The translations under genes were made by a program, and so were the position numbers. Shown piece by piece: positions 7,597 to 45,980 of a DNA stretch of 64,000 nt (its first letter is position 1; each line of letters starts with the position of its first letter). Origin of the DNA: Candidatus Doudnabacteria bacterium (GTDB lineage: Bacteria; Patescibacteriota; Doudnabacteria; UBA920; O2-02-FULL-48-8); the NCBI GenBank assembly GCA_016182875.1, contig JACPFQ010000004.1:259515-323514 (forward strand). The letters run 5' to 3'. The notes below the pieces were generated by a model. That model had not been told where the DNA came from, searched no databases, and was given only the letters and a program-made list of their open reading frames with translations.

Positions 7597-8124
7597 ATGC
7601 AAAAGGGTCTGGTAATCATTTATATAGGCAACGGCAAAGGCAAGACCTCAGCCGCCGCTGGCTTGGCGATTCGGGCGGCGGGAACCGGCATGAAAGTTTT
7701 GTACGCGCAATTTGTGAAGGGCGATTGGCCGAGCGGCGAGCGGAAAATTTTGGAGACCTTGCCCAATGTGACGGTTAAGCTCATGGGCCGGGGATTCGTG
7801 GGCATTTTGGGCGACCGCAAGCCTATTGAGGAACATATCCGTGCCGCAAAGCTTGGACTGAAGCTTGTGTTGAAGGCTTTGAAAAGCAAAAAATATGATC
7901 TGGTCATCGCCGACGAGGCGATTTCCGCGATTGAGTCCAAGCTTTTGACAGTAGAAGATGTTTACAAATTAATTAAACAAAAGCCGCAGAACGTCCATTT
8001 ATGCCTCACCGGCCACAAGCGAATCAAAAAATTGATAGATGCGGCGGATCTGGTGACGGAAATGAAAATGATCAAGCATCCCTATTATCTGGGCATTCTT
8101 GCGCAGAGAGGGATTGATTATTAA
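7597..8124 (+). CDS. cobO: cob(I)yrinic acid a,c-diamide / cob(I)alamin adenosyltransferase (CobO/CobA/BtuR family)
   Basis: 175 aa; P-loop GNGKGKTSAAAGLAIRAAGTG and YAQFVKG motif typical of the family. Confidence 0.8.
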   Translation: MQKGLVIIYIGNGKGKTSAAAGLAIRAAGTGMKVLYAQFVKGDWPSGERKILETLPNVTVKLMGRGFVGILGDRKPIEEHIRAAKLGLKLVLKALKSKKYDLVIADEAISAIESKLLTVEDVYKLIKQKPQNVHLCLTGHKRIKKLIDAADLVTEMKMIKHPYYLGILAQRGIDY

Positions 8125-8179: not shown

Positions 8180-9139
8180 TTGCTCGGTCGACGAGGCAAT
8201 CTAATTATACTAAGAATTATTTCTATGGCCAATAAAAGCAGAGAAGTATTAACTCATACCGGAGAACCTGAAGCGCCTGATAAGATTCAAGCAATTGAAA
8301 ATGAAGTTTTAACGGATGCTGAAAAAAGAAGCCCGGAATTTTTAGCTTATTTGGGGAAGGTTGATTTTGATTTGCTGCGTAAATTATTTTTTGAAATTTT
8401 CAAAAGAATCGGTATGGATGAAACAAGTTTTAATTTTTTAGGACCAGAGAGAATTGTTGAATCTAATCATGGTACCACATACAGCGGAATTGATAATGCC
8501 ATCATTATTGCCTTAAAAAATTTAGAAGCAACAGGAAGACCAACTGAACAGGATTTTGCTCATGTATTGATCCATGAAGAAGTTCATGCAACGGCAAAAA
8601 CTATTTGCAGGGGAGAAATTGATCCAACCTGGTTAGCAGATTATTTCCCAAATAAAGTTAACTCGATTCCTGAAAATCAATTCCGAGAACTTAGGTATGG
8701 CCTTTCCCGTCTTACGCTTCCTAAAAAAAGTATTCATGGAAGGACGAGAGTATTTTATCTCTTGAATGAAGGGGTAACTGAGAAGCTGGCACGAGAAATA
8801 TTTGAAAAATACGCCAATGTTAAAGACATGGATGTAAAGGAGCATGGCAAAAAAGTGAATGATGAGAAAAACCCAGAAAATTATTATTATCCGATCCCGG
8901 TTAGATTTGTTGAAGCATTAGTTGATAGAATTGCCAAAGAAACAGGTTTAGAATCTAAAATGGTTTGGGAAAGCTTTGTGCGAGCTGCTTATACGGGAGA
9001 AGATATGGAGAATCCTGAATTGCGGCAAGCTTTCGCGGAAACCATATCAGACGATTTTCTTTCCAGGCTGTCTCGTCTTGAAATTGGTGATGAAGAACAA
9101 ATGTTGGAGCTTATAGAGGAGTTGAAAAAGAATAATTAA
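8180..9139 (+). CDS. hypothetical protein with HExxH motif (putative zincin-like); likely starts at MANKSREV, about 8225
   Basis: 319-aa ORF; HEEVH motif; no other recognisable domain. Confidence 0.45.
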   Translation: MLGRRGNLIILRIISMANKSREVLTHTGEPEAPDKIQAIENEVLTDAEKRSPEFLAYLGKVDFDLLRKLFFEIFKRIGMDETSFNFLGPERIVESNHGTTYSGIDNAIIIALKNLEATGRPTEQDFAHVLIHEEVHATAKTICRGEIDPTWLADYFPNKVNSIPENQFRELRYGLSRLTLPKKSIHGRTRVFYLLNEGVTEKLAREIFEKYANVKDMDVKEHGKKVNDEKNPENYYYPIPVRFVEALVDRIAKETGLESKMVWESFVRAAYTGEDMENPELRQAFAETISDDFLSRLSRLEIGDEEQMLELIEELKKNN

Positions 9140-11155: not shown

Positions 11156-12391
11156 ATGTCCGAAACTCAATTGCTAAAAGGCTTTCGCGATTATCTGCCG
11201 CAGGAGCAGATGGCGCGGAAGAAAATAATTTCCAAAATCTCGGAAGTGTTCGAGCGTTTTGGGTTTGCCCCGGTCGACACTCCGGCCTTGGAATACTACA
11301 AACTTTTGGGCGGCAAATACGGCACTGAGGGTGAAAAGCTCATGTATAAATTCAAAGACCAGGGGGGACGCATGGTGGCGCTTCGTTATGACCTCACCGT
11401 GCCTTTGAGCCGAGTGCTGCTCAATTATCCCAATCTTCCCAAGCCGTTCAAGCGCTACCAAATCGCCCCGGTTTGGCGCGCGGAGAATCCTCAGAAAGGG
11501 CGCTTCCGCGAATTTGTGCAATGCGACGCAGACATCGTCGGCTCTGATTCCTTGATTGCCGACGCGGAAGTGGTCGCGACTTTTGCCGCCGCGTTCAAGA
11601 ATTTGGAAATTGGGGAAGTTGTGGTCAAGTTCAATGACCGCAGACTGATTGATCAAGTTTTGGACAAGCTTAAGGTTTCAACGGCAAAGCGGGTGAATTT
11701 TTTGAGAATCCTCGATAAGCTTGAGAAAATCGGCAAAAAGGAAACTTTGCAGAGCTTGAAGAAGGCAGGCTTTAAGCCAGACCTTTTGACTGAATATGAA
11801 AGCCAGATGAAATCAGCCGGCCTGGACTTTGTGGAACAGTTCGAAAATTTACTGGGAAGCTTTGGAGTGGGCAATATAAAATTTGACCCTTATTTGGCGC
11901 GCGGCTTGGATTATTATACCGGTACGATTTTTGAATTCATTTTGAAAAATAAACCCGAGTTTGGTTCAATCGCGGGAGGAGGGCGCTACGATAATTTGAT
12001 TAAAGACAATAAAGGCCAAGCCCTGCCCGCAGTCGGCTGTTCCATCGGCTTAGATAGGATGCTTTCGGCCTTGGAAGAAATGGGAGTGATTGCTCCGCAG
12101 ACCGCGGCGGAAGTGATTGTGTTTAATCTGGACGCAAGCCTTACTGCCGACTATTTGAATATTGCGACCAATCTGCGCTCAGCCGGCTTGGATTGCGAAT
12201 TTTATTATAAACCGGACAAGCTTGATAAACAATTCAAATATGCGGAAGCAAAAAATATCCAGGTTGCGGTGATTTACGGCCCCAATGAAGCAAAAGCGCG
12301 GAAGGTCAACGTGAAAAATTTAACGGAAAAAAAACAAGTTTCTGTTGACCTAGATGACTTAGTCACGGAAATCAAAAGCATGCTTTGGTAG
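11156..12391 (+). CDS. hisS: histidine--tRNA ligase
   Basis: 411 aa; class II aaRS HisRS motifs (RDYLPQE, ALRYDLTVP, GGGRYDNL). Confidence 0.9.
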   Translation: MSETQLLKGFRDYLPQEQMARKKIISKISEVFERFGFAPVDTPALEYYKLLGGKYGTEGEKLMYKFKDQGGRMVALRYDLTVPLSRVLLNYPNLPKPFKRYQIAPVWRAENPQKGRFREFVQCDADIVGSDSLIADAEVVATFAAAFKNLEIGEVVVKFNDRRLIDQVLDKLKVSTAKRVNFLRILDKLEKIGKKETLQSLKKAGFKPDLLTEYESQMKSAGLDFVEQFENLLGSFGVGNIKFDPYLARGLDYYTGTIFEFILKNKPEFGSIAGGGRYDNLIKDNKGQALPAVGCSIGLDRMLSALEEMGVIAPQTAAEVIVFNLDASLTADYLNIATNLRSAGLDCEFYYKPDKLDKQFKYAEAKNIQVAVIYGPNEAKARKVNVKNLTEKKQVSVDLDDLVTEIKSMLW

Positions 12392-22860: not shown

Positions 22861-23277
22861 ATGGCAGAACTCTTACATAAAGAGTTATCATATATAGTGC
22901 ATGGTGCGGCTATTGAAGTTCGAAAAGATTTTGGGCCAGGACACAAAGAAAAACTATATCAAACAGCATTTGCGCAGGAACTCGACCGCCGAAGTATAAA
23001 TTTCAAACAAGAGCCAGCAGTAAATATCTATTCACCTAAGGATGGACAAAAAGTCGGGTTATATTGACCCGACTTTGTTGTTGACGGTAAAATACTTGTC
23101 GAAATGAAGGCTGAAAAATTCGTTAATCGTGATGAGATCAAAAGAATCTATGATTATTTGCGAAACAGTAAATATGAATTAGCCTATTTTATAAACTTCG
23201 CTTCACCTAAGCTCTACGTCAGACGCATCATCTTTACTAATGATAGAAAGCTTTCAATGCCCAGTAAGTTCGTGTAA
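22861..23277 (+). pseudogene. GxxExxY protein (PD-(D/E)xK-like, TIGR04256-like) with in-frame TGA at 23065-23067
   Basis: ELSYIVHGAAIEVRKDFGPGHKEKLYQTAFAQEL...VGLY[TGA]PDFVVDGKILVEMKA...AYFINFASPKLYVRRII reads through in a single frame. Confidence 0.7.
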
Positions 23278-23345
23278 ATTCGTCTATTATTAGTGTTAAT
23301 TAGTGGTTTATTTGGCTAAGTTAAGCCTTTTTTGAGGCCAAAGTC

Positions 23346-23481
23346 TTGACAGCGCCGGCAAAAAGGTATATACTTTTGAGTTCTTTTTAAAATCGCATAT
23401 TATGCCAATTTCGTAACAGGACCGAAGTTTGGCGTTAAAAATTATACAAAAACAGCTCCTGTATTACGAGCTGTTTTTGTT
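23346..23481 (+). ncRNA. candidate small RNA unit (promoter TTGACA-17-TATACT to intrinsic terminator, about 100 nt transcript)
   Basis: ttgaca at 23346, tatact at 23369; hairpin acagctc ctgtattac gagctgt plus T-run at 23452-23481; no ORF longer than 5 codons. Confidence 0.25.
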
Positions 23482-23614
23482 TCCACTATTCTGGGTACTA
23501 ACTTGATTTAGCCCGCCCGAACGTACCGTTCGGTACGGGCGGGCAGGGAAATCATTTTATTGCCCTCTTAAGCAATCAAGCCTAAGTACCCAGAATTGTG
23601 GAAGTAACAGCAAG
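23479..23614 (+). repeat. array leader repeat copy A (gtttccactattctgggtac ... gtacccagaattgtggaagtaacagcaag) with nested GC hairpin insert
   Basis: Inverted arms flank a conserved core; ends 43 bp before the ORF 23657 start. Confidence 0.7.
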
Positions 23615-23656
23615 TTCTTTTGTTTTAGCGCTTTAAATGCGCAGCGGGAGTGTGAG

Positions 23657-24013
23657 ATGAAGAATATGCGATGTATTGCGTTGTACTTCGCCTTGGTCGC
23701 CTCGCTTGGTTTCAATGTCTACTACATGTTCAAAATGTCGGCGGGCCGCGTCGGCCAGGTCATGACAAGGGTCGGCAACATCCCGAACAACGAAGTGCAG
23801 TTCGAGCTCTTCGAAGTCAGCGCTGTCGGTCAGTCGAAGATGCTCTATGGCTGTTTGGAACTCCGCGCGGTGGAGAAGACCATGGCCTACCTCGGGACCA
23901 CGTATAGCGCGGACTATACGTACTTCACCGAACAGGGGTGGGTCACCATGCTGGTCGATCCGGTTCCGGTGACGTTCGCCGGCCTTCGATACATCAACCA
24001 GCGTATCGAGTAG
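23657..24013 (+). CDS. array ORF1: small secreted/membrane protein (118 aa)
   Basis: Signal-peptide-like N-terminus; GC about 60%. Confidence 0.5.
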   Translation: MKNMRCIALYFALVASLGFNVYYMFKMSAGRVGQVMTRVGNIPNNEVQFELFEVSAVGQSKMLYGCLELRAVEKTMAYLGTTYSADYTYFTEQGWVTMLVDPVPVTFAGLRYINQRIE

Positions 24014-24248
24014 TGCCAACAACCGGCGGCGCCGGAAACTGAGGGTAAGTAGGAGGAAGTTCCCAACCGCTTGGCGGCGGTCACAAATCATTTCGGATTA
24101 CTTCATTCTAAGTAATCCACCCAGAAGTGCGCCAACACTTCTCCTGTCCTGTGAGCTAGTACTCTAATACTGCGCCGTATTAGAGTGAAGCTTAGAGGAT
24201 AGGACATTAACAAACTTCTAATTTCTAATTACTAATTTCTAAAATTTT

Positions 24249-24340
24249 GTTTCCACGATTCTGGGCGTTAGTTAGAACTAAGGATGAATTCAGTAATACT
24301 GCCTTGAAAGTTAAATTGATACCCAGAATCGTGGAAGTGA
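24249..24340 (+). repeat. array leader repeat copy D (gtttccacgattctggg ... cccagaatcgtggaagtg)
   Basis: 13-bp perfect inverted arms; ends 40 bp before ORF 24380. Confidence 0.7.
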
Positions 24341-24379
24341 AAGATTGTCAGCACCTGACAAGGTGCAAAGTGAGGCAAC

Positions 24380-24613
24380 ATGAAGGGATTAAGCGCTCTC
24401 CTCGGAATCGCGATGATACTTCTGGCTCTCCGGGTTAGCTCTGTTGTTGAAGCCAACCCTGATCCATATAGGGAGATTCTCCCCGGGGTGATTGCGGTCG
24501 CCTCGATCGTCTGTCTCGTAATGGCCGCCGCCGGCCTGCTGCTGTACGCGATCTCGCCGCCGAGTAATCGGGACAACCTGCCGCGGCAGACGTCCTGTCG
24601 GTGGCACAAGTAA
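24380..24613 (+). CDS. array ORF2: small membrane protein (77 aa, two predicted TM helices)
   Basis: Hydrophobic; GC-rich. Confidence 0.45.
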   Translation: MKGLSALLGIAMILLALRVSSVVEANPDPYREILPGVIAVASIVCLVMAAAGLLLYAISPPSNRDNLPRQTSCRWHK

Positions 24614-24738
24614 GGCCAACGACGGCACTATGAATGGAGGACACAGAATGCATTAAGTAACTCGCGAACCATCGCGAATTGAATAGTGGGGCCAGAGCAA
24701 GCCAAACCTCTGTCCCCACATCCCGTTTCCAATATTTT

Positions 24739-24833
24739 GTTTCCACTATTCTGGGTACTAACTTGATTTAGCAGGGAAATCATTTTATTGCCCTCTTAAG
24801 CAATCAAGCCTAAGCACCCAGAATTGTGGAATT
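24739..24833 (+). repeat. array leader repeat copy B
   Basis: gtttccactattctgggtactaacttgatttagcagggaaatcattttattgccctcttaagcaatcaagcctaagcacccagaattgtgga; about 95% identical to copy A without its insert. Confidence 0.75.
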
Positions 24834-25101
24834 GAAAGGGAGGATGGACATGACGCGTGCGCAGCGCAAGAGATACGAAAGGAAGATGCAGAAGAAGGCC
24901 GAACGGGGCCTGATTGCGCCGACTCTCGTGATCGTCGGCGGGCTGGCCTTGGCGCAGGTCGGTTACTCGTTGATCTCTGAGCCGTTCAGGATCATCGAGT
25001 TCATCGGCCTCGGCATCGTCGCTCTCGCCGGAGCCGATTGGTTGAGAGTATTCGTGTACATGTATCGCAACCGGCCGACCTACGAGGATCGGCTGCTCTA
25101 G
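24826..25101 (+). CDS. array ORF3: small membrane protein (probable start MDMTRAQ at 24847)
   Basis: RBS gggagg; basic N-terminus followed by two TM helices. Confidence 0.45.
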   Translation: MELKGRMDMTRAQRKRYERKMQKKAERGLIAPTLVIVGGLALAQVGYSLISEPFRIIEFIGLGIVALAGADWLRVFVYMYRNRPTYEDRLL

Positions 25102-25109
25102 GAGGGCAG

Positions 25110-25460
25110 ATGAAGCTCAGAACCATCGGTTGGGTGCTCGCGTTTGTCGCCGCGGCCATTGTCGGCGCGATCGGCGACAACATGTACATGCAGGCGCGGC
25201 TTGAAGCCCAGCTCGGCTCATGCCCCGCCACGGTCCAGGTCCTGCAAGACGCCCTCGACAACTCGGCTGTGCTGAAAGAACAGCTGACCGAGTGGTTCGT
25301 GGCCACCGACGAACAAACCAAGCCGCTTCGGCTGACCTCCTTCACTGTCAGCCAAAAGGGCGAGGAGAAGCGCTGGGTCGGAGCCGCGGTCGAGAAGGAC
25401 CTGCTGCTCTCGCCGATCGGCAGAATCGTCGGCCGTGTCGTCGGCGAAGCCGGTCCCTAG
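25110..25460 (+). CDS. array ORF4: membrane-anchored small protein (116 aa)
   Basis: RBS ggaggg 6 nt upstream of ATG 25110; N-terminal TM helix. Confidence 0.45.
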   Translation: MKLRTIGWVLAFVAAAIVGAIGDNMYMQARLEAQLGSCPATVQVLQDALDNSAVLKEQLTEWFVATDEQTKPLRLTSFTVSQKGEEKRWVGAAVEKDLLLSPIGRIVGRVVGEAGP

Positions 25461-25610
25461 CGTTCCGTGAGGCGCGATGAGTGAGAGGTCTATTCGACTC
25501 TCCTCATCCGCTCTCTTCCTAAATTTTCGAGATTCGAAGATTTTGGAAGGGAGCAATCCCGAAACGGATTTAAATACTTTAATACATTATCGTATTAAAG
25601 TGAATAGGTT

Positions 25611-25739
25611 AATAGTTAACAGCCACGAGCCAAGCTCGTGTCCGCCATTCTGGGTACTAACTTGATTTAGCAGGGAAATCAAATTATGCCCTCAAAGCAA
25701 TCAAGCCATTGCACCCAGAGTCGTGGAAGTAACAGCAAG
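25611..25739 (+). repeat. array leader repeat copy C (with upstream conserved module aatagttaacagccacgagccaagctcgtg)
   Basis: Same core as A/B; the upstream module is shared with copy G (26905-26945). Confidence 0.7.
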
Positions 25740-25776
25740 ATCTTTGATAAAAAAAGTCGCCTTGGTTAGGCGACGG

Positions 25777-26158
25777 CTAGTATAGAATATAGTTAGTAAG
25801 GCAGAACAATTCCGAGTTTGTCGGCCACTTTTTTGGCCCAAGCTTCCAGGACTTCCAGGCGTTTGCGCATGATGATATGCTCTTCCTGGAAAGTTTTGAC
25901 GATTTTAGTAAGCCCGTCAGGTTTGTTAAGAGAATGTCAATCTTTGAATCAGTATGCGCTAAATCCTCTTTAGTGACAAAGACTTCTTTCTCAGCTTCGA
26001 TTAAATTTTTGATGTCCTGGGGAGTAAGCATTTATGCTGTTAATTAATATTAAAATTTGATCTATATGTTTTTGAACCTTAGTAATATCCGCTTCCAGCT
26101 TGTCGAACTTCTCGTCCAAGTATCCCAATAATGGTTTAAAATTAATCTCAGCCATAAT
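25777..26158 (-). pseudogene. AT-rich coiled-coil protein remnant broken into at least three frames
   Basis: MAEINFKPLLGYLDEKFDKLEADITKVQ... / MLTPQDIKNLIEAEKEVFVTKEDL... / KIVKTFQEEHIIMRKRLEVLEAWAKKVADKLGIVLPY lie in different frames on the minus strand. Confidence 0.25.
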
Positions 26159-26204
26159 AGTGCATTTATTCTAGTCCTTTGAAAATTTCCAGTCAATATA
26201 TTTT

Positions 26205-26252
26205 GTTTCTACGGTTCTGGGCGTTAGAATTAGCACCCAGAATTGTGGAGGC
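26205..26252 (+). repeat. array leader repeat copy F (short form: gtttctacggttctgggcgttagaattagcacccagaattgtggaggc)
   Basis: Minimal inverted-arm version; ends 19 bp before ORF 26271. Confidence 0.65.
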
Positions 26253-26270
26253 AAACAAGCTTCTACTAAT

Positions 26271-26669
26271 ATGCAGGAGGACTGCATGACGATAAACCAT
26301 GAGTTTAAGGTCGGCGATCGTGTCAGGTTTTCTCGAGCCGGAATTGGCGACTCGATTGACCTTTCTGAGGAAAGAGTCGCTCAACTGAGACAGAAAATCG
26401 CTCAGTTGAAAGATCAGGCAGTCGAGAAAGAACTGGCTGTAGACCAGCAGATTGAACTGGAAGCGAGCATGGATGAATTGGATTACATCCTCTTGCTCAG
26501 TTCAAACTCAATCTACTGCGTAGTCGAAAAGAGAACGCAGTGTACGATTTTCGAGAACACCAGCGGTGTCTCGAAAGAAGTTTTGGCCCAGGACATCAAG
26601 CTTGAAGATGTTTTTGTGCCAAATCTCTACGACGAGCTTTTCCCGGTTGACTGGTTCGAACTCGCTTAA
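26271..26669 (+). CDS. array ORF6: hypothetical soluble protein (132 aa)
   Basis: RBS gcaggagg; no TM segment. Confidence 0.45.
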   Translation: MQEDCMTINHEFKVGDRVRFSRAGIGDSIDLSEERVAQLRQKIAQLKDQAVEKELAVDQQIELEASMDELDYILLLSSNSIYCVVEKRTQCTIFENTSGVSKEVLAQDIKLEDVFVPNLYDELFPVDWFELA

Positions 26670-26797
26670 GTAGTCCTGTTCGGAAATCTCTCAAGGTTGG
26701 TTGGGTTAGAAGCAAGCCCCGTGTGGTGTAGCCGTCGTGCAATTACCAAGAAGTGCAGTTAGGTCCAAGGTGTAAGTTGATTAATTTCTCTTCCACC

Positions 26798-26853
26798 TTT
26801 CTATTTCCCTTCAATGGGACTGATGAGTCCGTGAAATCCGGACGAAATAGAAA
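26798..26853 (+). ncRNA. candidate minimal type III hammerhead ribozyme
   Basis: Stem III tttctat/atagaaa; U17; stem I tccc-ttcaat-ggga; CUGAUGA at 26820-26826; stem II GUCCG-ugaaauc-CGGAC with G10.1:C11.1; GAAA at 26844-26847. Confidence 0.55.
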
Positions 26854-26855
26854 TT

Positions 26856-27085
26856 GTTTCCACGATTCTGAATACTTAATGTTGTAATACAGGAACTAAA
26901 TAGTTAACAGTCACGAGCTAAGCTCGTGTCCACCATTCTGGGCACTTATCTTGGTTTAGTCCCGACGCTACGGTTCCGACGCAAGGTCGGAACAGGTCGG
27001 GACAGGCAGGGAATCATATATAAATGCCCTCGAGCCTTAAGCAATCAATGCTCTAAGTACCCAGAATTGTGGAAGTAACAGCAAG
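26856..27085 (+). repeat. array leader repeat copy G (composite, 230 bp, extra nested hairpins gtcccgac...gtcgggac)
   Basis: gtttccacgattctg ... aatagttaacagtcacgagctaagctcgtgtccaccattctgggcac ... gtacccagaattgtggaagtaacagcaag; ends 18 bp before ORF 27104. Confidence 0.7.
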
Positions 27086-27103
27086 TTCTTTTGAGCGCGA
27101 AAT

Positions 27104-27439
27104 GTGCGCGTGAGGTGTGACATGCAGATTCAGGATTTTATCTTGATCGCCCTCGGGATTGCGGCGTTCCTCTCCATCACGTTGAGGGTCGCGCGAGCTC
27201 TCTGGACTCTCGGGTCCAGCGCGCGCGGTCTGCTCGGACTACTCGGGCTGGTCGTCGGTGGGTTCGTTCTTATCTGGCTCGTGACTCTCATGCCGGAATC
27301 GGTAATTCCGGTTCAGGGCAAGCGTCTCTTACAGATCGCCGGTATCCTCATGATGCTTGGCGGACTGTATCAAACAATGCAGATGAGGTTCCGGGAAGCG
27401 CATCTGCCGCCAGGTTCCAAGGAGGATGCGGCGCGGTAA
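27104..27439 (+). CDS. array ORF7: small membrane protein (111 aa, 3 TM helices)
   Basis: Hydrophobic; GC-rich. Confidence 0.45.
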   Translation: MRVRCDMQIQDFILIALGIAAFLSITLRVARALWTLGSSARGLLGLLGLVVGGFVLIWLVTLMPESVIPVQGKRLLQIAGILMMLGGLYQTMQMRFREAHLPPGSKEDAAR

Positions 27440-27658
27440 CGCGTCGTAAAAGTGCAAAGGTGGCGAGATGGTTCATACCCACGATGGGTCACTGACCGTT
27501 TTGCCTTCCTTCCCTTGGACTGCACTTATAATACTTTAACGTATTGAAGTGGAGTCCAGAGGATCGGAAGTTAAATCAGTAATAAGAAACTAGTAATAAG
27601 TAATTAGGACAAAAGATTCTAATTACTATATACTTTTTACTAATTACTAATCACTTTT

Positions 27659-27752
27659 GTTTCTAGAATGCGAGTGTAGTTGGCTTAAGTTAAGAGAGAA
27701 CATCATTTTTCAGTCTCAGAACTAACAAGCTAAATACATTCCATTGTGGACG
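27659..27752 (+). repeat. array leader repeat copy I (degenerate)
   Basis: gtttctagaatg...ccattgtggacgcg, preceded by the AT-rich taattactaat motif as in copy D. Confidence 0.4.
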
Positions 27753-27769
27753 CGAATTGAGGTGATGAG

Positions 27770-27976
27770 GTGACTATGAAGAACCCATTGTTCAAACCCG
27801 GAGATCGGTGCACGTTCACCAACCGCAGCGGGAATAGCGCACGCAGCGGTGAAAAATGCACGGTGGTCACTGTGGTTCCGCCGGATGAGCATGATGGCGG
27901 TGTCGCCTACATCGTCGAGTTCGAAAACGGCCACAGGATATCAGTTCATGAAGAAGAGCTCATGCAGACGCATTGA
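27770..27976 (+). CDS. array ORF8: small soluble protein (68 aa)
   Basis: ORF immediately 3' of the degenerate repeat. Confidence 0.4.
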   Translation: MTMKNPLFKPGDRCTFTNRSGNSARSGEKCTVVTVVPPDEHDGGVAYIVEFENGHRISVHEEELMQTH

Positions 27977-28299
27977 GGACTAACATGCATATCGAGATTG
28001 ATTCGTCCTGGAAGTTCCGGTTGCTCCTCGGTGGTTTGCTCCTGGCGATTTACTTCCTCTGGGAGTACGTCGCAAGCCAGCCGCACCACCTCGTCATCAA
28101 GTAGGAGGATTCCTTCCAGCCAGGAAAGCAAGATTTTCCAATCAGCTCACCTTCACCTGGCTTATCCAGCAGGATTGACTCAAGATTAATCCTGCTCCTG
28201 CCCTTGCGCTTAAAACTATATTGAGCTTGAGGGCGGGTCAGTGGTATAATATAGTGTTAAAGCACTTTTATATAATAAAGTCTTTGAGACTTTGGATAC

Positions 28300-28332
28300 T
28301 TAGTTGGTTAAGCGGCCAGAATCGTGGAGGCT
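28300..28332 (+). repeat. array leader repeat copy H (3' arm only: gccagaatcgtggaggc)
   Basis: Partial match to the conserved 3' arm; 18 bp before ORF 28351. Confidence 0.35.
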
Positions 28333-28350
28333 TAACCAAAGGAGGTTGCG

Positions 28351-28614
28351 ATGCCTGAGATCATCGGCTCAGCCGAAGCTGCCAGTTTGACCACCATAGG
28401 CGCGCTGCTTTTCATCCGCTTTGTGTTCGTTGGCCTCTGCCATGTCGAAGACAAAGCCCGCTCCTTCAGCCGACGGGTCTACGGACAGGAAGAAGCGTCC
28501 GAAATCCCGGCAAGCGTCACTGCTCCCGCCGGAAAGATCGTTTCTTTCCCTGCCATCGCCGCGCCCGCACCAATCTCGCGAGAGCGAGAAAAGCAGCCCC
28601 CAATTGCTGCGTAG
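28351..28614 (+). CDS. array ORF9: small membrane protein (87 aa)
   Basis: RBS aaaggagg; N-terminal TM helix. Confidence 0.4.
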   Translation: MPEIIGSAEAASLTTIGALLFIRFVFVGLCHVEDKARSFSRRVYGQEEASEIPASVTAPAGKIVSFPAIAAPAPISREREKQPPIAA

Positions 28615-28743
28615 GCGCTACCAAGAAGGTGGTTCGCTTCTCTAGAGCCACCTTCCCCTCCTTATGTGTTTGACCAAAAGGTCGAATGCATAAGGAGGGA
28701 TATATTTCCGCCCTCGTGTCGTTAACCTCTTAGAGAGGAGAGT

Positions 28744-28938
28744 ATGCAGAAGAAGGCTACCGTCGGCGTGGAATCGTCCGTCGCAAGGCCTGTCGTTCGC
28801 ATCCGTTATTGGTGGGACCCGTGGTCGTTGCTTCCCCCAATGTCTGAAAAGACACACAGGCGGGTATGCAACACCCTCATGGTAATCGCCGCGGCCATTT
28901 TGTTAACATGGGTCGTCGGCGGATTCCTCTTCGAGTAA
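28744..28938 (+). CDS. array ORF10: small membrane protein (64 aa)
   Basis: RBS gagaggagag; C-terminal TM helix. Confidence 0.4.
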   Translation: MQKKATVGVESSVARPVVRIRYWWDPWSLLPPMSEKTHRRVCNTLMVIAAAILLTWVVGGFLFE

Positions 28939-29012
28939 TCCCTTCCCCGGGCGCTTCCCAGCGCGCCCAAGTACTTATACAAAAACCAACTTTATTAGCA
29001 AGGGGGGCTCCA

Positions 29013-29204
29013 ATGGAGCACGAAGCGCCTGACCTCTTGGTCGTCTTGAGGGTCTGCGCACCGATCGGCGTCGCCTTCGGCATTTATGGCATCATCAGCA
29101 ACTTGCCAATGATGCGAGAAGTGGCGACGATCTGTTTGCTCATATCGCTTGCGGTGTGGGCAGGGCCAATCGTGCGACGCATCAAGCGGAGGGGGGTGGG
29201 CTAG
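29013..29204 (+). CDS. array ORF11: small membrane protein (63 aa; internal start of track ORF 28866..29204)
   Basis: RBS gggggg then ATG at 29013; two TM helices. Confidence 0.4.
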   Translation: MEHEAPDLLVVLRVCAPIGVAFGIYGIISNLPMMREVATICLLISLAVWAGPIVRRIKRRGVG

Positions 29205-29393
29205 TACGGCCATTCCTCCTCCGGAAGTTTTCTTTAGATATCTGCCGGCGAATCTGACAAATTTTCTTTGAAGATTTATCAGATCTCCTGTTCGCCGGCA
29301 GATACTTGAAGAAAACCAAGCGCCTTTGACGAGGCGCTCTTTTTATGCTAAAGTTTTCAGGCAACTATCAACTATTAACTATAACCTAATTCG

Positions 29394-35044: not shown

Positions 35045-38000
35045 TTGATTGTCTCATATGAACAATTAATCCTAATTCAGGAAAGCACTTATAAACAGGA
35101 GATAATAATGCACACTAGCGAATTAACTCTCACTGCGCGAAAAGGCATTGCACTGGGTTTGGCTGTTTCCACTTTGCTGTGGGCCGCCACTCTTTGGGCA
35201 CTGCCTGCTTTTGTTTCCGCAGCACCCCACTCTGATGGTTGCTTGATCAACTCATCCGGCACCATTTATCTGGTCACTGGCGGTCAAAAGAGAGGTTTCC
35301 CGACCGCTGAAGTTTTTGCCTCACACGGCTACAGCTTCAGCCAAGTCGTGGCTGCCTCATCCGAAGACACTCAAGCCATGGGTCCGGTAATGGTTTACGC
35401 CGATGGGACATTGGTCAAGGGCCCGTCTGACCCTCTGGTCTACTTGGTAGCCAACGGTCAAAAGAGAGGCTTTGTGTCTGGCTCGGTCTTTACCGGTCTT
35501 GGCTTTAGCTTTGCCAGTATCGTGACTGCCGCCACCAACACTTTTGCCGATCTGCCAATGGGCGCCAACCTCGAGTCCGCTACCGAGCGCCACACAGCTG
35601 GCGTCTTGGCCAAGGATTCAACCGGCACTGTTTGGCAAATGACTGCCACCGGCCGAAAAGGCGTTCCTTCCATGGAAGTCTTTAACTCCTATGGCTGGTC
35701 ATGGTCCAATGTGGTTGCTGCCAACGCTGCTGACACTGCCGCTGCGAATGAAGGCGTAGTTGCCGCCCGAGCATCCTGCTCAACCGGCGCCACACCTCCT
35801 CCTCCGCCAGCAGGCACTATGTCAGTCAGCCTTGCTTCCAACAACCCTGTTGCCGGCACAGTAATTGCCGGCCAAGGTGTGGCAGATCTTGCTCACTTTA
35901 GCTTCTCAGGCTCTGGTAAAGTAACCAGCGTTGTCTTGAAGCGATTGGGTGTATCATCCGACACCACCTTGTCTGCAGTTTATCTGTATGACGGTTATGT
36001 CCGATTGACTGATTCTGCCACCGTTTCTTCTGGCACCATCACTTTCAACAACACCGCGGGACTCTTCACCGTGGCAGGTTCCAGAACAGTCACAGTGCGC
36101 TCCAACATCGCGGCCAGTACATCCGGCCAGACTGTGGGCGTGCAATTGTTCTCAGCCGCGGCTGACGTCGGCACCGTGTCAGGCTCTCCGCTTTCCGGAA
36201 ACATGCACACTGTGGCTGCCGCTCCAAGCAACTTCGCGACTGTTGACTTTAATGCCACTACCACTCCGTCCAATGCCACAATCTCACCGCAAGATGATTA
36301 CACCATGTGGCAGAACGTGGTCACGGTGGGCAATACCAAAGTCAGATTGTATGCGTTCAAACTGCGACAAGTTGGTTCAGTCGTAGCTTCAGATCTTCAG
36401 AACTTTGATCTGTTTGTTGACGGCACCAAGGTCGCCTCAGTTGCGGCTTTGGATTCCGAAGGCTATGCCAACTTCGATCTTTCAGCCGCTCCGGTCACAC
36501 TAGAAACCGGCTCTAGAACGATCAAGATGTTGGGCGACATAATTGGCGGTTCCAACCGCAACTTCGCCTTCAGCTTGCGCCAAGCGGTTGATGGCTTCTT
36601 CGTGGATAACGACTTCAACCAGGGAGTCCTTCCGACCGCTGCCAGCGCCACTTTCTCGGCGCGCGGCAACACCGATGATAACTTGCAGACGATTAGCACT
36701 GGCACCATCACCTTCACCAAGCGGGCTGATTCCCCGTCCGGCAACGTCGTGAATGCCGCCTCCAATGTTTTGCTGGCGAAATTCGACGTCAAGGCTGCGG
36801 GTGAATCCATGAAGGTGGAAACCCTTCGCGTGCGAATTGATGATGACGACGGCGACGAGATGACCCTGCGCAACGGCGCTTTGTATCTCGACGGCGCTCA
36901 GATCGGCTCCACAGCCGCCATTTCCGGCGACACCGGCACCGACCCTGACTACACCGAATACACCTTCGGCTCATCGTTCATCGTGGTCCCCGGCACCCCG
37001 CGCGTGCTCGAAGTCAAAGCAGATATCTTTGACAATGACGGCACCAACAGCGTGGCTGCCAGCGACACTTACCAGGTGGAAATCATTGGTTCGGCCAACG
37101 TCCAAAGATTGACTTCATTGGGCTACGTTTCCGCTCCTTCGACCGCAGCCGAGGCCAACACCTTGACTGTGGCCACGGGTTCGCTGACCGCTGCTCTTGA
37201 TACTTCACTCGCTAATCACACGATTGTGGCTCCTAAGTATGGCTACATGATTGGCAAGTACACGATCCAGCAAACGACCACCGAAGGCGCCAACATCACC
37301 AGCGTTGTCGTTGACTTCGACGAAAAAGCTGATGCCTTTGATGGCTCAGACGACTTAACCAACCTCTACATTAAGATGGGCTCTTACACCTCGCCCATCA
37401 AGGCGACAGTCACGGATACGGGCAATACGTTCTCAACCAATGTCGCGATTGCTGCCGGCCAGGTCATGGCTCTGGAGGTTTACGCCGATGTTGCTGCTTC
37501 CGCCACCAATGGTGACGGCACAGCCGACACGATTGAAAGCTCGGTAACCGTGGCTTCCACCACTACACAATCCAGCACCTCTGCCACTGCCGACGAAGTT
37601 GATGGCCAGACCATCACAGCCGGCGCCGGCACGTTTGCCACTGCCGTGGCTCCTGACACACCAGTCAATAGGATCACTTATGGCAACCAGGAAGTGGAAG
37701 CGGCCCGATTCAAGATCACTGCCACCAATGAGACCTACACTCTGCGCCAGTGGAACATGAAGGTTGGCGCATCGCCAATCTCATCCGCTATCGTGGAAGC
37801 CAGGCTCTACTATGGCTCGACCTTGCTCGGCTCCGCTCCATTCTCTGTCACCAGCAACACAATTGCTCAAATTACTGGGCTTGAGTCTAAGGCTGAAGCC
37901 GTGGTTGCGGCCAATACCAGCAGGACCTTCTCGGTCAAGCTGCTGCTCAACCAAATCGGCGGAAACTATGGCACTTCCCAGCAAAACGTGGCTGTCACTT

Positions 38001-38773
38001 CGGATGCTTTGATCATCCAGGACAGCCAGGGAGTCCAAGATTCCACCTCATCCGCAGTCACCACTGACCGCGTGGGCAATGAATTGTACGTCTATAAGGG
38101 CACGCCAAAAGTTGAGGTTGTCGATCTGACAAATTCGACCTTGGTCAACGGTTCGGCCCAGGACGTCTACAAATTCAAAGTCACTGGCCAGGGCGGCACG
38201 GTAGCTGTCAAACAGGTTAAGCTTTCTGTGGCTTGGTCTGATGGCGGCACTGCCGACACCCTGGAAGTGGAATCATTGAAGTTCTACAAGAACGACGTTG
38301 ATATCACGGCGAGCGTGACTATGGTTGACGAAGACGGCAATGATGTGGAAACCACCTCCGGATTGACTGAAGATGACGACACACTGGTTGTCACCTTCAC
38401 CACCGAAGATGCCGTGGCTGCCGGCGAATCCGTGACCTACCGGGTCCGCGGCACGCCGCAAGCCTTCCGCGCCACCGGCACTGACACCGTCGGCGACAGT
38501 GTGTCCTTCAATGTCCCGTCTGATGCCAGCCACAACGGCACCTCAGTCTTCTTAAATGACCAGACTGATATTAACGCCGGCCAGTCCGAAATCATGGAGT
38601 TGTTCACTTCCGCCGCCGCTTCATCTAGCGATGGCACTGCTGCCAACTTCATCTGGTCCGACAACTCGGCAACCGCACACGTTTCAACCGCCAATGCCAC
38701 CAGCACTGGCGACTGGGCGAACGGCTACAATGTCCTCAACTTGCCGCTCGACGGCGAGACTTGGACAAAATAA
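35045..38773 (+). CDS. giant secreted surface protein (about 1220 aa; probable start MHTSELTL at 35108) with four N-terminal 45-aa modules and Ig-like beta-rich repeats
   Basis: Signal peptide; repeated G(T)xYLVxxGxKRGF...VFxSxGYSFS module four times; T/S/A/V/G-rich beta-strand repeats. Confidence 0.75.
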   Translation: MIVSYEQLILIQESTYKQEIIMHTSELTLTARKGIALGLAVSTLLWAATLWALPAFVSAAPHSDGCLINSSGTIYLVTGGQKRGFPTAEVFASHGYSFSQVVAASSEDTQAMGPVMVYADGTLVKGPSDPLVYLVANGQKRGFVSGSVFTGLGFSFASIVTAATNTFADLPMGANLESATERHTAGVLAKDSTGTVWQMTATGRKGVPSMEVFNSYGWSWSNVVAANAADTAAANEGVVAARASCSTGATPPPPPAGTMSVSLASNNPVAGTVIAGQGVADLAHFSFSGSGKVTSVVLKRLGVSSDTTLSAVYLYDGYVRLTDSATVSSGTITFNNTAGLFTVAGSRTVTVRSNIAASTSGQTVGVQLFSAAADVGTVSGSPLSGNMHTVAAAPSNFATVDFNATTTPSNATISPQDDYTMWQNVVTVGNTKVRLYAFKLRQVGSVVASDLQNFDLFVDGTKVASVAALDSEGYANFDLSAAPVTLETGSRTIKMLGDIIGGSNRNFAFSLRQAVDGFFVDNDFNQGVLPTAASATFSARGNTDDNLQTISTGTITFTKRADSPSGNVVNAASNVLLAKFDVKAAGESMKVETLRVRIDDDDGDEMTLRNGALYLDGAQIGSTAAISGDTGTDPDYTEYTFGSSFIVVPGTPRVLEVKADIFDNDGTNSVAASDTYQVEIIGSANVQRLTSLGYVSAPSTAAEANTLTVATGSLTAALDTSLANHTIVAPKYGYMIGKYTIQQTTTEGANITSVVVDFDEKADAFDGSDDLTNLYIKMGSYTSPIKATVTDTGNTFSTNVAIAAGQVMALEVYADVAASATNGDGTADTIESSVTVASTTTQSSTSATADEVDGQTITAGAGTFATAVAPDTPVNRITYGNQEVEAARFKITATNETYTLRQWNMKVGASPISSAIVEARLYYGSTLLGSAPFSVTSNTIAQITGLESKAEAVVAANTSRTFSVKLLLNQIGGNYGTSQQNVAVTSDALIIQDSQGVQDSTSSAVTTDRVGNELYVYKGTPKVEVVDLTNSTLVNGSAQDVYKFKVTGQGGTVAVKQVKLSVAWSDGGTADTLEVESLKFYKNDVDITASVTMVDEDGNDVETTSGLTEDDDTLVVTFTTEDAVAAGESVTYRVRGTPQAFRATGTDTVGDSVSFNVPSDASHNGTSVFLNDQTDINAGQSEIMELFTSAAASSSDGTAANFIWSDNSATAHVSTANATSTGDWANGYNVLNLPLDGETWTK

Positions 38774-44306: not shown

Positions 44307-45980
44307 ATGAAACACTTATATAAGGCACTCGTGAAAGCATCGGCTTTGGGATTGGGCATAAGCTTAGCTCTGTCTAGCGTGGCGTTTGGTGCGGCTGATT
44401 TGAACTGGTCCGTAGATACGACCGTGACCATCAATTCGGTAAACTTCATCATCAGCGGCAATTCCGAAGCGACTTCCATGATTGTGGGGGCAACGACGCT
44501 TACCGTGACAGTCCCTTCCGGAAGTGAGTTTAGGCTCAGGTCCGTTGACCGCCGTCCCTTGAACAACAACCAAAGTCTGGCTCAGCAATGTTCTGTTTCG
44601 GACAACGTCCTGCCAGTGGTCGGCCCCAAAACCAGCGTAGTTATAACACCTGACACCTCAACCACCTGTACCACCAACTATCCGCCGTCAGGCGGAGGCG
44701 GTGGCGGCGGCGGTGGATCACCCAGCCCAAGCCCAACTCCTACACCGACACCGACCCCCACGCCTACCCCGACTCCTACACCAACCCCTACTCCTACTAG
44801 CACCACTGGCACTGTGAATGCCACGCCAGAAGCCGGCGGGTCCACCAGCTTCACGCCAACCGATACTGCCACTCCACAAGCCAGCGTTTCACTGCCGGCC
44901 AATTCTGTCTCTTCCACCACTACAGTGACGGTGACTAACACCACTTTGGCCAGCGAAGGCATTACCCCAGCGCCTTCAAGCGGCGGGGCCACTGCCACAG
45001 TCGGCGCTCCTTACGAAGTCACGGCCACTGCCGCTAGCGGTAGTGCGGCCAGCTTTAGCCAGCCGGTCACGCTGACTTTTACCTATACTGACGCGCAACT
45101 GCCGTCGGGTGTTTCTGAATCCGATTTGGTGGTCATGTATTTTGACTCTACTTCCAATTCTTGGGTGACCCTGCCAACCTCGGTCAATGCCAGCACCAAT
45201 ACGCTGACGACCACAGTCACGCACTTTACCGTGTTTGTGATCGCGGCCAAGCCGGGCGGCTCGGGCACAGTTGGCGCGCATGCCAATGGCACCCTGATTT
45301 TGGACGGGCAAACCGTGTACCTCATCAAGAACGGTCAAAGAATTGGCTTCCGCAATGAACAAGAATACCTCTCCCACGGCTACAAATTCAGCCAAACCGT
45401 GACAGCCTCTGCTGCAGACAAAGCTCTGCCCGCAGGCGTGATCCAAAAAGCCATGGAAGGCACACTGGTGCTGGATTCTTCTGACAACCGTACGGTATAT
45501 ATGGTTGGCACAGGTGCGACCAAGCGCGGGTTTACCACAGCTGCGGTGTTTACCGGCCTGGGCTATAATTTTGCTAATCTGCCCAAGATCAATCTTTCGG
45601 ATTATCCAGCCGGCAGTCCGATCGGGACTACCACCGAAGTCCATCCGGACGGCGCCCTGGTTTTGGAAGGCAAGACAGTCTGGTGGATTCGCGGCAATGC
45701 CCGGCAGGGATTTGAGAGCGAAGCCGTGTTCAACACCTACGGCTTCTCATTCGGCAAAGTGGTCGCGTCCAATTCCTCGGATCTGGCGCTGGCCCAAGGC
45801 GCGCTGGTCAAATTCCGCGACGGGACATTGGTCAAGGACGGAGCAGACTACTACCTGGTCTCGGACGGCAAGAAGCTGAAATTTGCTTCTTCAGCTGATC
45901 TAACTGCCAAGGGATATAAGACTTCCAACGCAATCAGCGCGTCTCTGTCCGCCTACGAATCCGGCGGCAATGTGCAATAA
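44307..45980 (+). CDS. secreted surface protein: N-terminal beta domain, PT linker, four C-terminal 45-aa modules
   Basis: 557 aa; [22 protein letters not shown] linker; C-terminal 250 aa about 75% identical to the C-terminus of ORF 46882. Confidence 0.7.
   Translation: MKHLYKALVKASALGLGISLALSSVAFGAADLNWSVDTTVTINSVNFIISGNSEATSMIVGATTLTVTVPSGSEFRLRSVDRRPLNNNQSLAQQCSVSDNVLPVVGPKTSVVITPDTSTTCTTNYPPSGGGGGGGGGSPSPSPTPTPTPTPTPTPTPTPTPTPTSTTGTVNATPEAGGSTSFTPTDTATPQASVSLPANSVSSTTTVTVTNTTLASEGITPAPSSGGATATVGAPYEVTATAASGSAASFSQPVTLTFTYTDAQLPSGVSESDLVVMYFDSTSNSWVTLPTSVNASTNTLTTTVTHFTVFVIAAKPGGSGTVGAHANGTLILDGQTVYLIKNGQRIGFRNEQEYLSHGYKFSQTVTASAADKALPAGVIQKAMEGTLVLDSSDNRTVYMVGTGATKRGFTTAAVFTGLGYNFANLPKINLSDYPAGSPIGTTTEVHPDGALVLEGKTVWWIRGNARQGFESEAVFNTYGFSFGKVVASNSSDLALAQGALVKFRDGTLVKDGADYYLVSDGKKLKFASSADLTAKGYKTSNAISASLSAYESGGNVQ

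Follow-up and report, generated by a model that had tools for sequence, protein, structure and literature searches.

The interval between groEL and rpmF-nusB on a chromosome of Candidatus Doudnabacteria, a lineage of the Candidate Phyla Radiation (CPR), is filled with small open reading frames (ORFs) interleaved with copies of one palindromic module. We describe this array in a 64,000-nt stretch of contig JACPFQ010000004.1 (the window; positions are those of the window unless a related locus, designated by an L number, is named) and in its relatives. The module represents a new family of structured RNAs made in the sense transcript, a conclusion that is close to certain as far as RNA structure is concerned. 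Our preferred reading, to which we assign a probability of about 0.55 as a whole, is that this family punctuates a hypervariable operon of orphan genes via mRNA processing or stability; that the operon is specific to the Candidatus Doudnabacteria lineage and vertically inherited at one chromosomal site; and that the array is not an integron. The module repeats probably also serve as recombination anchors. A search of the literature found no description of the locus.

A structured module in the sense transcript

The window holds six full copies of the module, one diverged copy and two half copies (Table 1), all in one orientation between 23479 and 28330 and nowhere else in the 64 kb. Each is an inverted repeat of 47-150 nt that starts with GTTTCCAC and finishes with GTGGAAG. 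Mismatch-tolerant motif scans confine the arm pair TTCCACNATTCTGG / CCAGAATNGTGGA to 23.4-28.4 kb of the window; with at most one mismatch, the arm motif matches 15 times, a total reached by none of 100 shuffles, and all copies fold as rod-like hairpins (z -4 to -8). An earlier, sequence-only reading of this DNA had recognized the one-directional array, which repeat scans and a covariance model bear out, but had given the arms as perfect over 13 bp; instead, they extend for ~15-19 bp around a central 1x1 position, mismatched or paired. Its module starts at 25611 and 26856 take in a junction segment, D7, which is duplicated (the copy in the 25611 region is 92% identical to 26899-26946), and the one at 26856 also includes half of a second module type. 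Its statement that each copy leads into a small sense ORF holds for the other copies, which end 11-52 nt before a start codon, but not for copy 4 (25638), which is followed by an antisense gene.

Relatives were collected by a groEL homologue search, which gave neighborhoods with groEL 69-89% identical, and scanning metagenome contigs with a DNA pattern of both arms added L241-L243. The groEL protein of the window itself has a 100% identical match in a Candidatus Doudnabacteria metagenome-assembled genome, on a 327-kb contig. With R1, a hand-derived covariance model of the module that detects the six full window copies, 35 distinct copies were recovered from 12 lineages, all on the sense strand and every one inside a groEL-rpmF array; the remainder of the 64 kb and ~200 kb of sequence flanking related arrays contain none. 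L263, whose groEL is 75% identical, has a strong copy, and L264, at 69%, a weak one. Scores on the sense strand are far above those on the antisense strand (e.g., copy 3 in Table 1).

The outer stem was assessed in an independent MAFFT alignment of 23 copies: its 15 bp are 93.6% paired, and 10 of the 15 pairs have changed on both sides. These values were reached by 0 of 500 shuffles, and sliding the partner strand by 1-3 columns leaves only 33-57% paired. The double changes include GGG/CCC to AAU/AUU, and entire blocks have been swapped (AUUCUGGG/CCCAGAAU to AUUCUGAAUA/UAUUCAGA or ACAUUGGG/CCCAAUGU). On the coding strand, oppositions in the outer stem include 56 G·U but only 8 A·C; thus it is the sense strand that folds, in the simplest case as RNA, whereas a structure of the opposite strand or a symmetric DNA duplex would lack such a bias. 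Covariation extends to the inner stems (CUUGAUU/AAUCAAG to CUUAGUU/AACUAAG; GC/GC to AC/GU), in an alignment that was fitted to the hand-derived R1 and leans towards that model, MAFFT alone having misaligned these stems. Folding and a covariance model, which the sequence-only reading had proposed as a check on its structured repeat, both support it.

Three module subtypes recur across species: type 1 has the apex GCAGGGAAAUCA...UUGCCCUC; type 2 the apex AAGGAUGAAUUCAGUAAU; and type 3 the arms CUGAAUA and the apex CAGAGAAA...UUGCUCUAG. An optional GC-rich extra stem is always inserted at one fixed position. Some nucleotides are invariant outside simple pairing (GC.GG.AAA ... U.CC ... AGC.A..A), and a conserved A·G lies beside the apical stem. 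At gathering score, the module belongs to no family in Rfam 15, and at E <= 10 only the plant family MIR781 appears, a spurious long-hairpin match on both strands. Twister, pistol, hairpin and hatchet ribozymes, Y RNA, 6S RNA, a clustered regularly interspaced short palindromic repeats (CRISPR) repeat and the RNA of a toxin-antitoxin system were all dropped as identities for the module, none giving an Rfam signal. An entire CRISPR array was rejected as well: the repeats are 47-150 nt long, internally palindromic and spaced 490-1218 bp apart, and the window ORFs scanned include no cas genes.

Spacers and transcription signals

The module shares its spacers with other conserved elements, one of which, the hammerhead, is a known RNA family. 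A type III hammerhead ribozyme precedes composite module 6 (Table 1); its core is intact (CUGAUGA...GAAA), with three helices and an open stem III, the Rfam alignment spans model positions 1-54, and cleavage is predicted after U26805, in an AUU triplet. Orthologues are found in L258 (CUGAAGA, site GUC; 34.1 bits, E = 1.5e-4, 6-kb search) and L259 (CUGAUGA, site GUC). Each of the three ends 2-3 nt short of a type 3 module. The changes in stem III, from UCUA/UAGA to UUCG/CGAA, amount to three compensatory pairs; on these features, we accept the three as genuine type III members.

A second hairpin, X, follows many ORFs; it combines a base, CUUCCCUUG...CAGAGGAUCGGAA, with a variable, covarying apex, has 11 or more copies in other arrays, with covariation in the stem, and, like the leader described below, lacks a family in Rfam 15. 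Members of the AT-rich hairpin family also follow groEL in L244 and L246, and in L242 they precede modules. A common 5' untranslated region (UTR), composed of GUAACAGCAAGUUCUUUUG, a GCGC-loop-GCGC hairpin and GAGGUG (GGAGGUGUGAG-AUG), runs up to the start codon of O1, O6 and unrelated ORFs in L244, L255 and L258; the GUAACAGCAAGUUCUUUUG-GCGC-hairpin combination lies at 23605-23656, 25730-25775 and 27076-27121 in the window, and at L244 14075-14113, L258 11574-11620 and L255 11262-11305. This combination superficially resembles a boxA/boxB (nut-like) site. With X, Y (a 3'-UTR element; Table 1), the hammerhead, the AT-rich hairpin and the 5' UTR all recurring in other arrays, conservation is higher in the spacers than in the genes.

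A promoter and terminator scan gives the array one strong promoter and one final terminator; a near-identical promoter is present in 10 related loci. The palindrome upstream of it (uuuuGGCUAAnnUUAGCC / GGCUAAnnUUAGCC / uuuuGGCUAAnnUUAGCCaaaa) recurs in L241, L242, L248, L252, L255, L258 and L259, and uuuuGGCUAAnnUUAGCCaaaa is likely to be the operator of some regulator. In several relatives, PaaX_M-type regulators are encoded close to the array.

The first module is separated from the promoter by a leader of ~100 nt, whose terminator-like hairpin with a U-run directly precedes the module. Leaders of 10 species have in common CCUAUUCG-UUCAGGACC-CGAAUAGG, followed by GGUCCUGnnGGGACC-U6 (counterparts at L244 11885-11994, L258 9823-9922 and L259 10743-10854, in L241 on the minus strand and in L252). 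The loop of the leader complements the 5' strand of the terminator (CAGGA at 23417-23421 against UCCUG at 23457-23461 in the window), and the leader resembles an attenuator or antiterminator of an undescribed kind, which would govern entry into the array. A different leader, unusually long and GC-rich (~650 nt), separates the promoter from the first small ORF at L243 330-1017 (= L261 ~8540-8670 onward); it may be another structured RNA.

Gene content, locus and neighbors

The modules are followed by 11 small ORFs that have good Shine-Dalgarno sequences. Nine of them have a hydrophobic segment of transmembrane (TM) type, and none resembles another, in line with the mostly small membrane or secreted, mutually unrelated peptides of the sequence-only reading. 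Their GC content is 0.54-0.64 and that at third codon positions (GC3) 0.64-0.83, except for O5 (GC 0.47, GC3 0.55); among the comparison genes of the window, groEL has a GC content of 0.52 and rpmF 0.46, both with GC3 of ~0.56-0.61, and housekeeping GC3 is 0.55-0.61, so the contrast is mainly one of third codon positions. An excess of GC over the flanking genes had been claimed for all the ORFs; it holds apart from O5, and groEL is richer in GC than had been stated. Across all species, array ORFs mostly have GC 0.53-0.67 and GC3 0.6-0.9, flanking genes 0.43-0.51 and 0.40-0.61. GC3 far exceeds GC at second positions, a periodicity that argues that the ORFs are real coding sequences. The GC excess might stem from selection, from a separate pool of donors or from GC-biased gene conversion at a hotspot of recombination.

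The products are orphans. Searches of the window ORFs against Pfam, PHROGs and PADLOC gave nothing significant; O4 matched only itself among 5.8 billion clusters (it is annotated as a hypothetical protein in the metagenome-assembled genome with the identical groEL), the only convincing match of O1 among 1.84 billion representatives was O1 itself, and an ORF of L243 likewise found only itself in a large protein database. Single-sequence AlphaFold2 models were unusable (predicted local distance difference test 38 for O5 and 34 for O1). O5 (26286-26330) and O7 (27776-27820), otherwise unrelated, have in common the N-terminal motif FK(V/P)GDR(V/C)xF, which may be part of a small beta-barrel domain.

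How stable is this set of genes? In tblastn searches against all other arrays, 0 of the 11 window ORFs found a match at E < 0.01, while groES, rpmF and nusB are 74-92% identical between the window and related loci and the antisense gene, degraded in the window as the sequence-only reading had it, is intact at L244 13638-13877 with 83% nucleotide identity (tblastn, blastn); the sense ORFs have therefore been replaced, not merely diverged. In this respect, the array behaves as the cassette array it had been taken for: unrelated, GC3-rich ORFs whose content is replaced between related genomes. The number, length and order of ORFs vary between species, and the few ORFs of other species that are shared are shared patchily and at different array ranks. 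One ORF common to L255 and L258 (68% amino acid identity) follows modules of different types in the two genomes; nucleotide homology sets in ~13 nt into the 3' arm of this preceding module and stops exactly at the start of the L258 hammerhead. The window contains chimeric modules, with rearrangement at the modules, and a complete module in L252 (12072-12167) is nested in the optional GC-rich stem of another (12010-12253). Sequence comparisons thus support the repeats as marks of rearrangement breakpoints.

On the time scale of populations, turnover is slow. Among genomes that have the same groEL but come from different samples, arrays are 99.9-100% identical, and no within-population switching was detected; the sole difference is an intragenic deletion of 172 bp. 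This deletion (L248 14580 versus L250 12117-12288) removes the start of one array ORF; some ORFs of the arrays may thus be in decay instead of under selection.

The array, with its strong promoter, attenuator-like leader, modules and small GC3-rich ORFs, is present between groEL and rpmF-nusB in at least 11 further lineages with Doudnabacteria-like groEL. Gene order in every fetched relative is HisRS, ComEC, ..., Fpg, two unknown genes, groES, groEL, array, rpmF and nusB, the last usually followed by the gene of an LTD-domain protein; the part from Fpg to nusB was seen in L244-L259, L261, L263 and L264, and a longer piece of the L243 contig (L261) showed that L243, too, is a groEL locus. In relatives, the groEL-rpmF interval comprises 3-6.5 kb of small ORFs without Pfam domains. 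Two-arm and apex patterns of the module had no match in viral contigs other than one chance match (L260) that the covariance model rejected, so there is no evidence of phage origin; a 14-base single-arm pattern gave only chance single matches over genome and viral contigs (L001-L200).

Two short ORFs between groEL and the array promoter (22861-23067 and 23104-23277) correspond to the N- and C-terminal halves of a PD-(D/E)XK nuclease of family PDDEXK_3, a split, probably pseudogenized gene. Other genes occupy this spot elsewhere: SLT in L261 and DUF5715 in L259 and L263. Farther away, an AdoCbl-II (cobalamin) riboswitch aptamer at 1391-1445 on the minus strand scores 42.8 bits, above the Rfam gathering score, near genes for a BtuR/CobO adenosyltransferase (7597-8124) and a B12-type ribonucleotide reductase (4788-7391). 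Very large ORFs at 35045-38773, 44307-45980 and 46882-54015 have unusually high second-position GC (0.50-0.57) and account for the other GC-rich blocks of the window; the product of 2377 aa may be a surface protein, given its Big_5, CarboxypepD_reg and fn3 repeats, and those of 1242 and 557 aa have no Pfam match.

Table 1. Features of the array and its signals, in order of position in the window. R1, covariance model of the module; z, folding z score.
Feature	Position	Strand	Remarks
Palindrome GGCTAAGTTAAGCC	23314-23327	.	Operator-like, ~20 nt upstream of the -35 hexamer; read from sequence
Array promoter	23346-23374	+	TTGACA-17-TATACT; 11 of 12 consensus matches
Conserved leader	23375-23478	+	Hairpin 23408-23428, loop ..CAGGAC..; terminator-like hairpin and U-run 23453-23478
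Module copy 1	23479-23604	+	Type 1 with optional GC-rich extra stem; R1 59.7 bits (+) vs 40.5 (-); -61.9 kcal/mol, z = -7.8
O1	23657-24013	+	118 aa, one TM-like segment, orphan; GC3 0.80
3'-UTR element Y	24047-24085	+	GUAAGUAGGAGGAAGUUCCCAACCGCUUGGCGGCGGU; 94% identical to L252 13883-13916, 76% to L246 13647-13753
3' hairpin X, copy 1	24138-24206	+	Base CU-rich/AGAGGAUAGGA, variable apex; -37.7 kcal/mol, z = -7.5
Module copy 2	24249-24337	+	Type 2, apex AAGGAUGAAUUCAGUAAU; R1 44.4 bits, z = -8.3; near-identical type at L248 12603-12692
O2	24380-24613	+	77 aa, two TM-like segments; no family match
Module copy 3	24739-24832	+	Canonical type 1; R1 92.8 bits (+) vs 57.6 (-); z = -5.1
O3	24844-25101	+	85 aa, two TM segments, GC3 0.83; translationally adjacent to O4
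O4	25110-25460	+	116 aa, one TM segment, GC3 0.82
Junction repeat and module copy 4	25611-25729	+	Junction repeat 25611-25637, module 25638-25729; R1 82 bits; no sense ORF after
Antisense gene	25777-26158	-	Frameshifted copy of a conserved 79-aa gene; own promoter 26196-26168, terminator 25774-25756
Module copy 5	26205-26251	+	Minimal 47-nt form, outer stem only; R1 32.9 bits, z = -7.4; stem uses G·U pairs
O5	26286-26669	+	127 aa, soluble; sole ORF with host-like GC (0.47)
Type III hammerhead ribozyme	26798-26853	+	Rfam RF00008, 38.0 bits, E = 1.2e-5 (6-kb search)
Composite module 6	26856-27075	+	Type 3 5' half 26856-26910, junction repeat, full type 1 with extra stem 26926-27075; R1 44.6 bits, z = -6.9
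O6	27122-27439	+	105 aa, at least two TM-like segments
3' hairpin X, copy 2	27503-27572	+	z = -7.2; 75-80% identical to L244 12607-12666 and 13523-13584
AT-rich hairpin	27575-27651	+	AGUAAUAAGUAAUUAG...CUAAUUACU; inverted repeat I3
Module copy 7	27659-27751	+	Diverged; rod-like fold -30.6 kcal/mol, z = -5.3; missed by R1 at E <= 1
O7	27776-27976	+	66 aa, soluble
O8	27985-28104	+	39 aa, one TM segment
Module 3' arm remnant	28300-28330	+	GCCAGAATCGTGGAGG; within a new small hairpin right before the O9 ribosome-binding site; arm at 28315-28329
O9	28351-28614	+	Small TM protein without a module of its own; no family match
O10	28744-28938	+	Small TM protein without a module of its own; no family match
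O11	29013-29204	+	Small TM protein without a module of its own; no family match
Intrinsic terminator closing the array, before rpmF	29319-29345	+	Terminator scan

Proposed punctuation of an operon and its alternatives

If the genes come and go, what are the conserved spacers for? We propose that a single regulated, near-consensus promoter, with its operator-like palindrome and attenuator-like leader, would give rise to a long polycistronic transcript that encodes many small proteins, mostly membrane or secreted and without homologues. Between the cistrons, the sense transcript would form the rod-shaped modules; together with X hairpins in the 3' UTRs and hammerheads in some spacers, these would punctuate the RNA, defining or protecting individual mRNA ends. 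The ribozyme would cut the RNA, as might plausibly a double-strand-specific (RNase III-type) enzyme acting on helices of at least 25 bp. Each resulting mRNA would carry a module hairpin at its 5' end, with or without a hammerhead before it, and an X hairpin at its 3' end, and would be stabilized by these terminal hairpins; the common 5' UTR would offer a ready translation-initiation region to any incoming ORF. Being conserved and repeated, the spacer elements would also be homology anchors at which ORF cassettes are replaced, shuffled, duplicated and deleted.

The proposal has precedents: in T7 early mRNAs and at REP (repetitive extragenic palindrome) or puf hairpins, a similar arrangement stabilizes transcripts and uncouples neighboring cistrons. 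RNase III sites of the T7 early region, REP elements with the bacterial interspersed mosaic elements (BIMEs) and hairpins of the puf operon are intercistronic processing or stability hairpins, which remain at mRNA ends after cleavage and set differential stability. The modules are likewise long, irregular hairpins between cistrons, but their sequences are unrelated, their apical domain is conserved far beyond the needs of an RNase III site, they are coupled to hypervariable gene content, and their cleavage is only proposed.

Several observations sit uneasily with punctuation. It leaves the high GC3 of the ORFs unexplained, and the scan found weak internal promoter-like sites at 27606 and 28221. 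Both arms are conserved in sequence beyond what pairing needs, which would also fit recognition by a sequence-specific protein, including at the DNA level. The hammerheads score below the RF00008 gathering threshold (38.0 and 34.1 versus 48.5 bits), and the triplet in the window is AUU, not GUC. The distance from module to start codon ranges from 1 to 53 nt, and modules also occur in tandem without an ORF: four in L252 (12010-12418), two in L242 (705, 866) and two in L246 (11930, 12107). These tandem copies and variable distances fit an RNA-intrinsic function at least as well as mRNA punctuation. The nested module of L252 looks like an insertion, for which RNA punctuation does not account.

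Could the module itself be the functional RNA (a processed small RNA, a sponge or binding site for some RNA-binding protein, or a new RNA that cleaves itself or responds to a ligand), its position before ORFs being secondary? The tandem ORF-less copies would then need no gene, the invariant nucleotides outside simple pairing would have a role, and the optional stem at a fixed site would recall many riboswitches and ribozymes; an immediately adjoining hammerhead also speaks for this idea, as classes of self-cleaving ribozymes reportedly cluster. Yet no ribozyme, riboswitch or small RNA of Rfam matches even at E <= 10, no expression platform (terminator or sequestration of the ribosome-binding site) is evident, the molecule is mostly a plain long helix, and the minimal copy at 26205-26251 has been kept before its ORF without an apical domain. 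We consider this account unlikely. More doubtful still is a broader possibility, namely, that the locus is an integrase-independent cassette system bounded by module, X and hammerhead, or represents a new class of catalytic or protein-recognized RNA; if true, it would open a second, non-integron and possibly RNA-linked route to a chromosomal "cassette library", with capture and swapping at RNA boundaries.

The sequence-only reading likened the layout to an integron or a cluster of attC sites lacking integron-integrases (CALIN) and allowed for an undescribed capture system. On such an account at the DNA level, the modules would be attC analogues in a site-specific system, with their recombinase encoded at another locus. 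Similarities to integrons and CALINs are plain: short, mostly promoterless ORFs in one direction, many of them orphan membrane or secreted proteins of non-host composition, are separated by variable-length, imperfect palindromes with conserved ends and a variable middle, and content differs between related genomes. The start of L255/L258 cassette homology within a module 3' arm, the nested module in L252 and the chimeric modules of the window would also follow from recombination at DNA sites. Against this stand the absence of Phage_integrase (PF00589) or any other recombinase from the 30 window ORFs scanned, including all of at least 250 aa, and from the genes with Pfam annotation in the 8-10 kb that flank 11 related arrays on either side; IntI and attI are likewise missing from the window ORFs and related loci scanned, and neither module end fits a GTTRRRY or RYYYAAC (R/L) core. 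The sequence-only reading had itself noted that the window shows no integrase and no evident canonical core; membership in the integron or CALIN class is not supported here. The G·U bias places the fold on the coding strand, whereas attC uses the bottom strand, which here would carry the A·C mismatches; the array occupies the same housekeeping locus in all lineages examined and is static in populations; and X, Y, the hammerhead and the common 5' UTR, further conserved RNA elements that include a ribozyme, fill the spacers, whereas the attC model needs none of them. Recombination sites of this kind are therefore quite improbable.

The sequence-only reading had offered an alternative beside it that comes near to our observations, a multigene family in which a recombinogenic 5' leader is conserved. 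Such leaders precede variable coding regions in the vsp/vsa loci of Mycoplasma and in orphan toxin-immunity and rAID-type immunity arrays. There, as here, a conserved non-coding leader reaches to the start codons of unrelated or variable genes and repeats are recombination substrates; the Doudnabacteria array differs in that no recombinase was found, no gene is inverted and the ORFs are not paralogous.

Are the modules selfish palindromes (miniature inverted-repeat transposable elements, REP or Correia-like repeats) in a tolerant intergenic region? Terminal inverted repeats, variable internal length, the nested copy in L252 and the half copies in the window are all in character. But the modules are confined to a single locus (the 64-kb window and ~200 kb of relatives' flanks) with none in viral contigs; they have one orientation, without target-site duplications in the flanks or a transposase found; and their sequence and structure are kept with compensatory changes across lineages at groEL identities of 75-89%, which makes this explanation very improbable. 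Finally, we give almost no credence to the modules being ordinary promoters, operators or terminators of independent genes, with ORF differences due to fast divergence of orthologues: weak internal promoter-like sites and AT-rich tracts ahead of several modules notwithstanding, the modules lack U-tracts and -35/-10 hexamers, relatives do not have the same gene content but differ in ORF number, length and order, with no residual similarity, next to an antisense neighbor of 83% nucleotide identity, and the hammerhead and compensatory pairing point to RNA structure.

Among the individual elements, the hammerhead belongs to a known family. It has the CUGANGA...GAAA core, NUH site and three stems of RF00008 and a position between small hypothetical genes, a setting in which ribozyme-associated gene clusters have reportedly been noted before. 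It differs from typical members in its score, below the gathering threshold in the window and L258, and in being a conserved partner of one module subtype at a single CPR locus.

What would a punctuated array of orphan genes mean for these bacteria? The RNA biology of CPR bacteria is largely unexplored, and the locus adds to it a new structured RNA family of at least 35 copies, with strong covariation and a conserved hammerhead partnership. For the detection of integrons and CALINs, it is a cautionary look-alike. Its spacers outlast its genes, so it offers a natural system in which to follow the origin, expression and turnover of orphan genes for small proteins and the purpose of a bacterial ribozyme. 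More speculatively, if the small membrane proteins mediate interactions of these episymbionts with hosts or competitors, the array would be their main variable interface.

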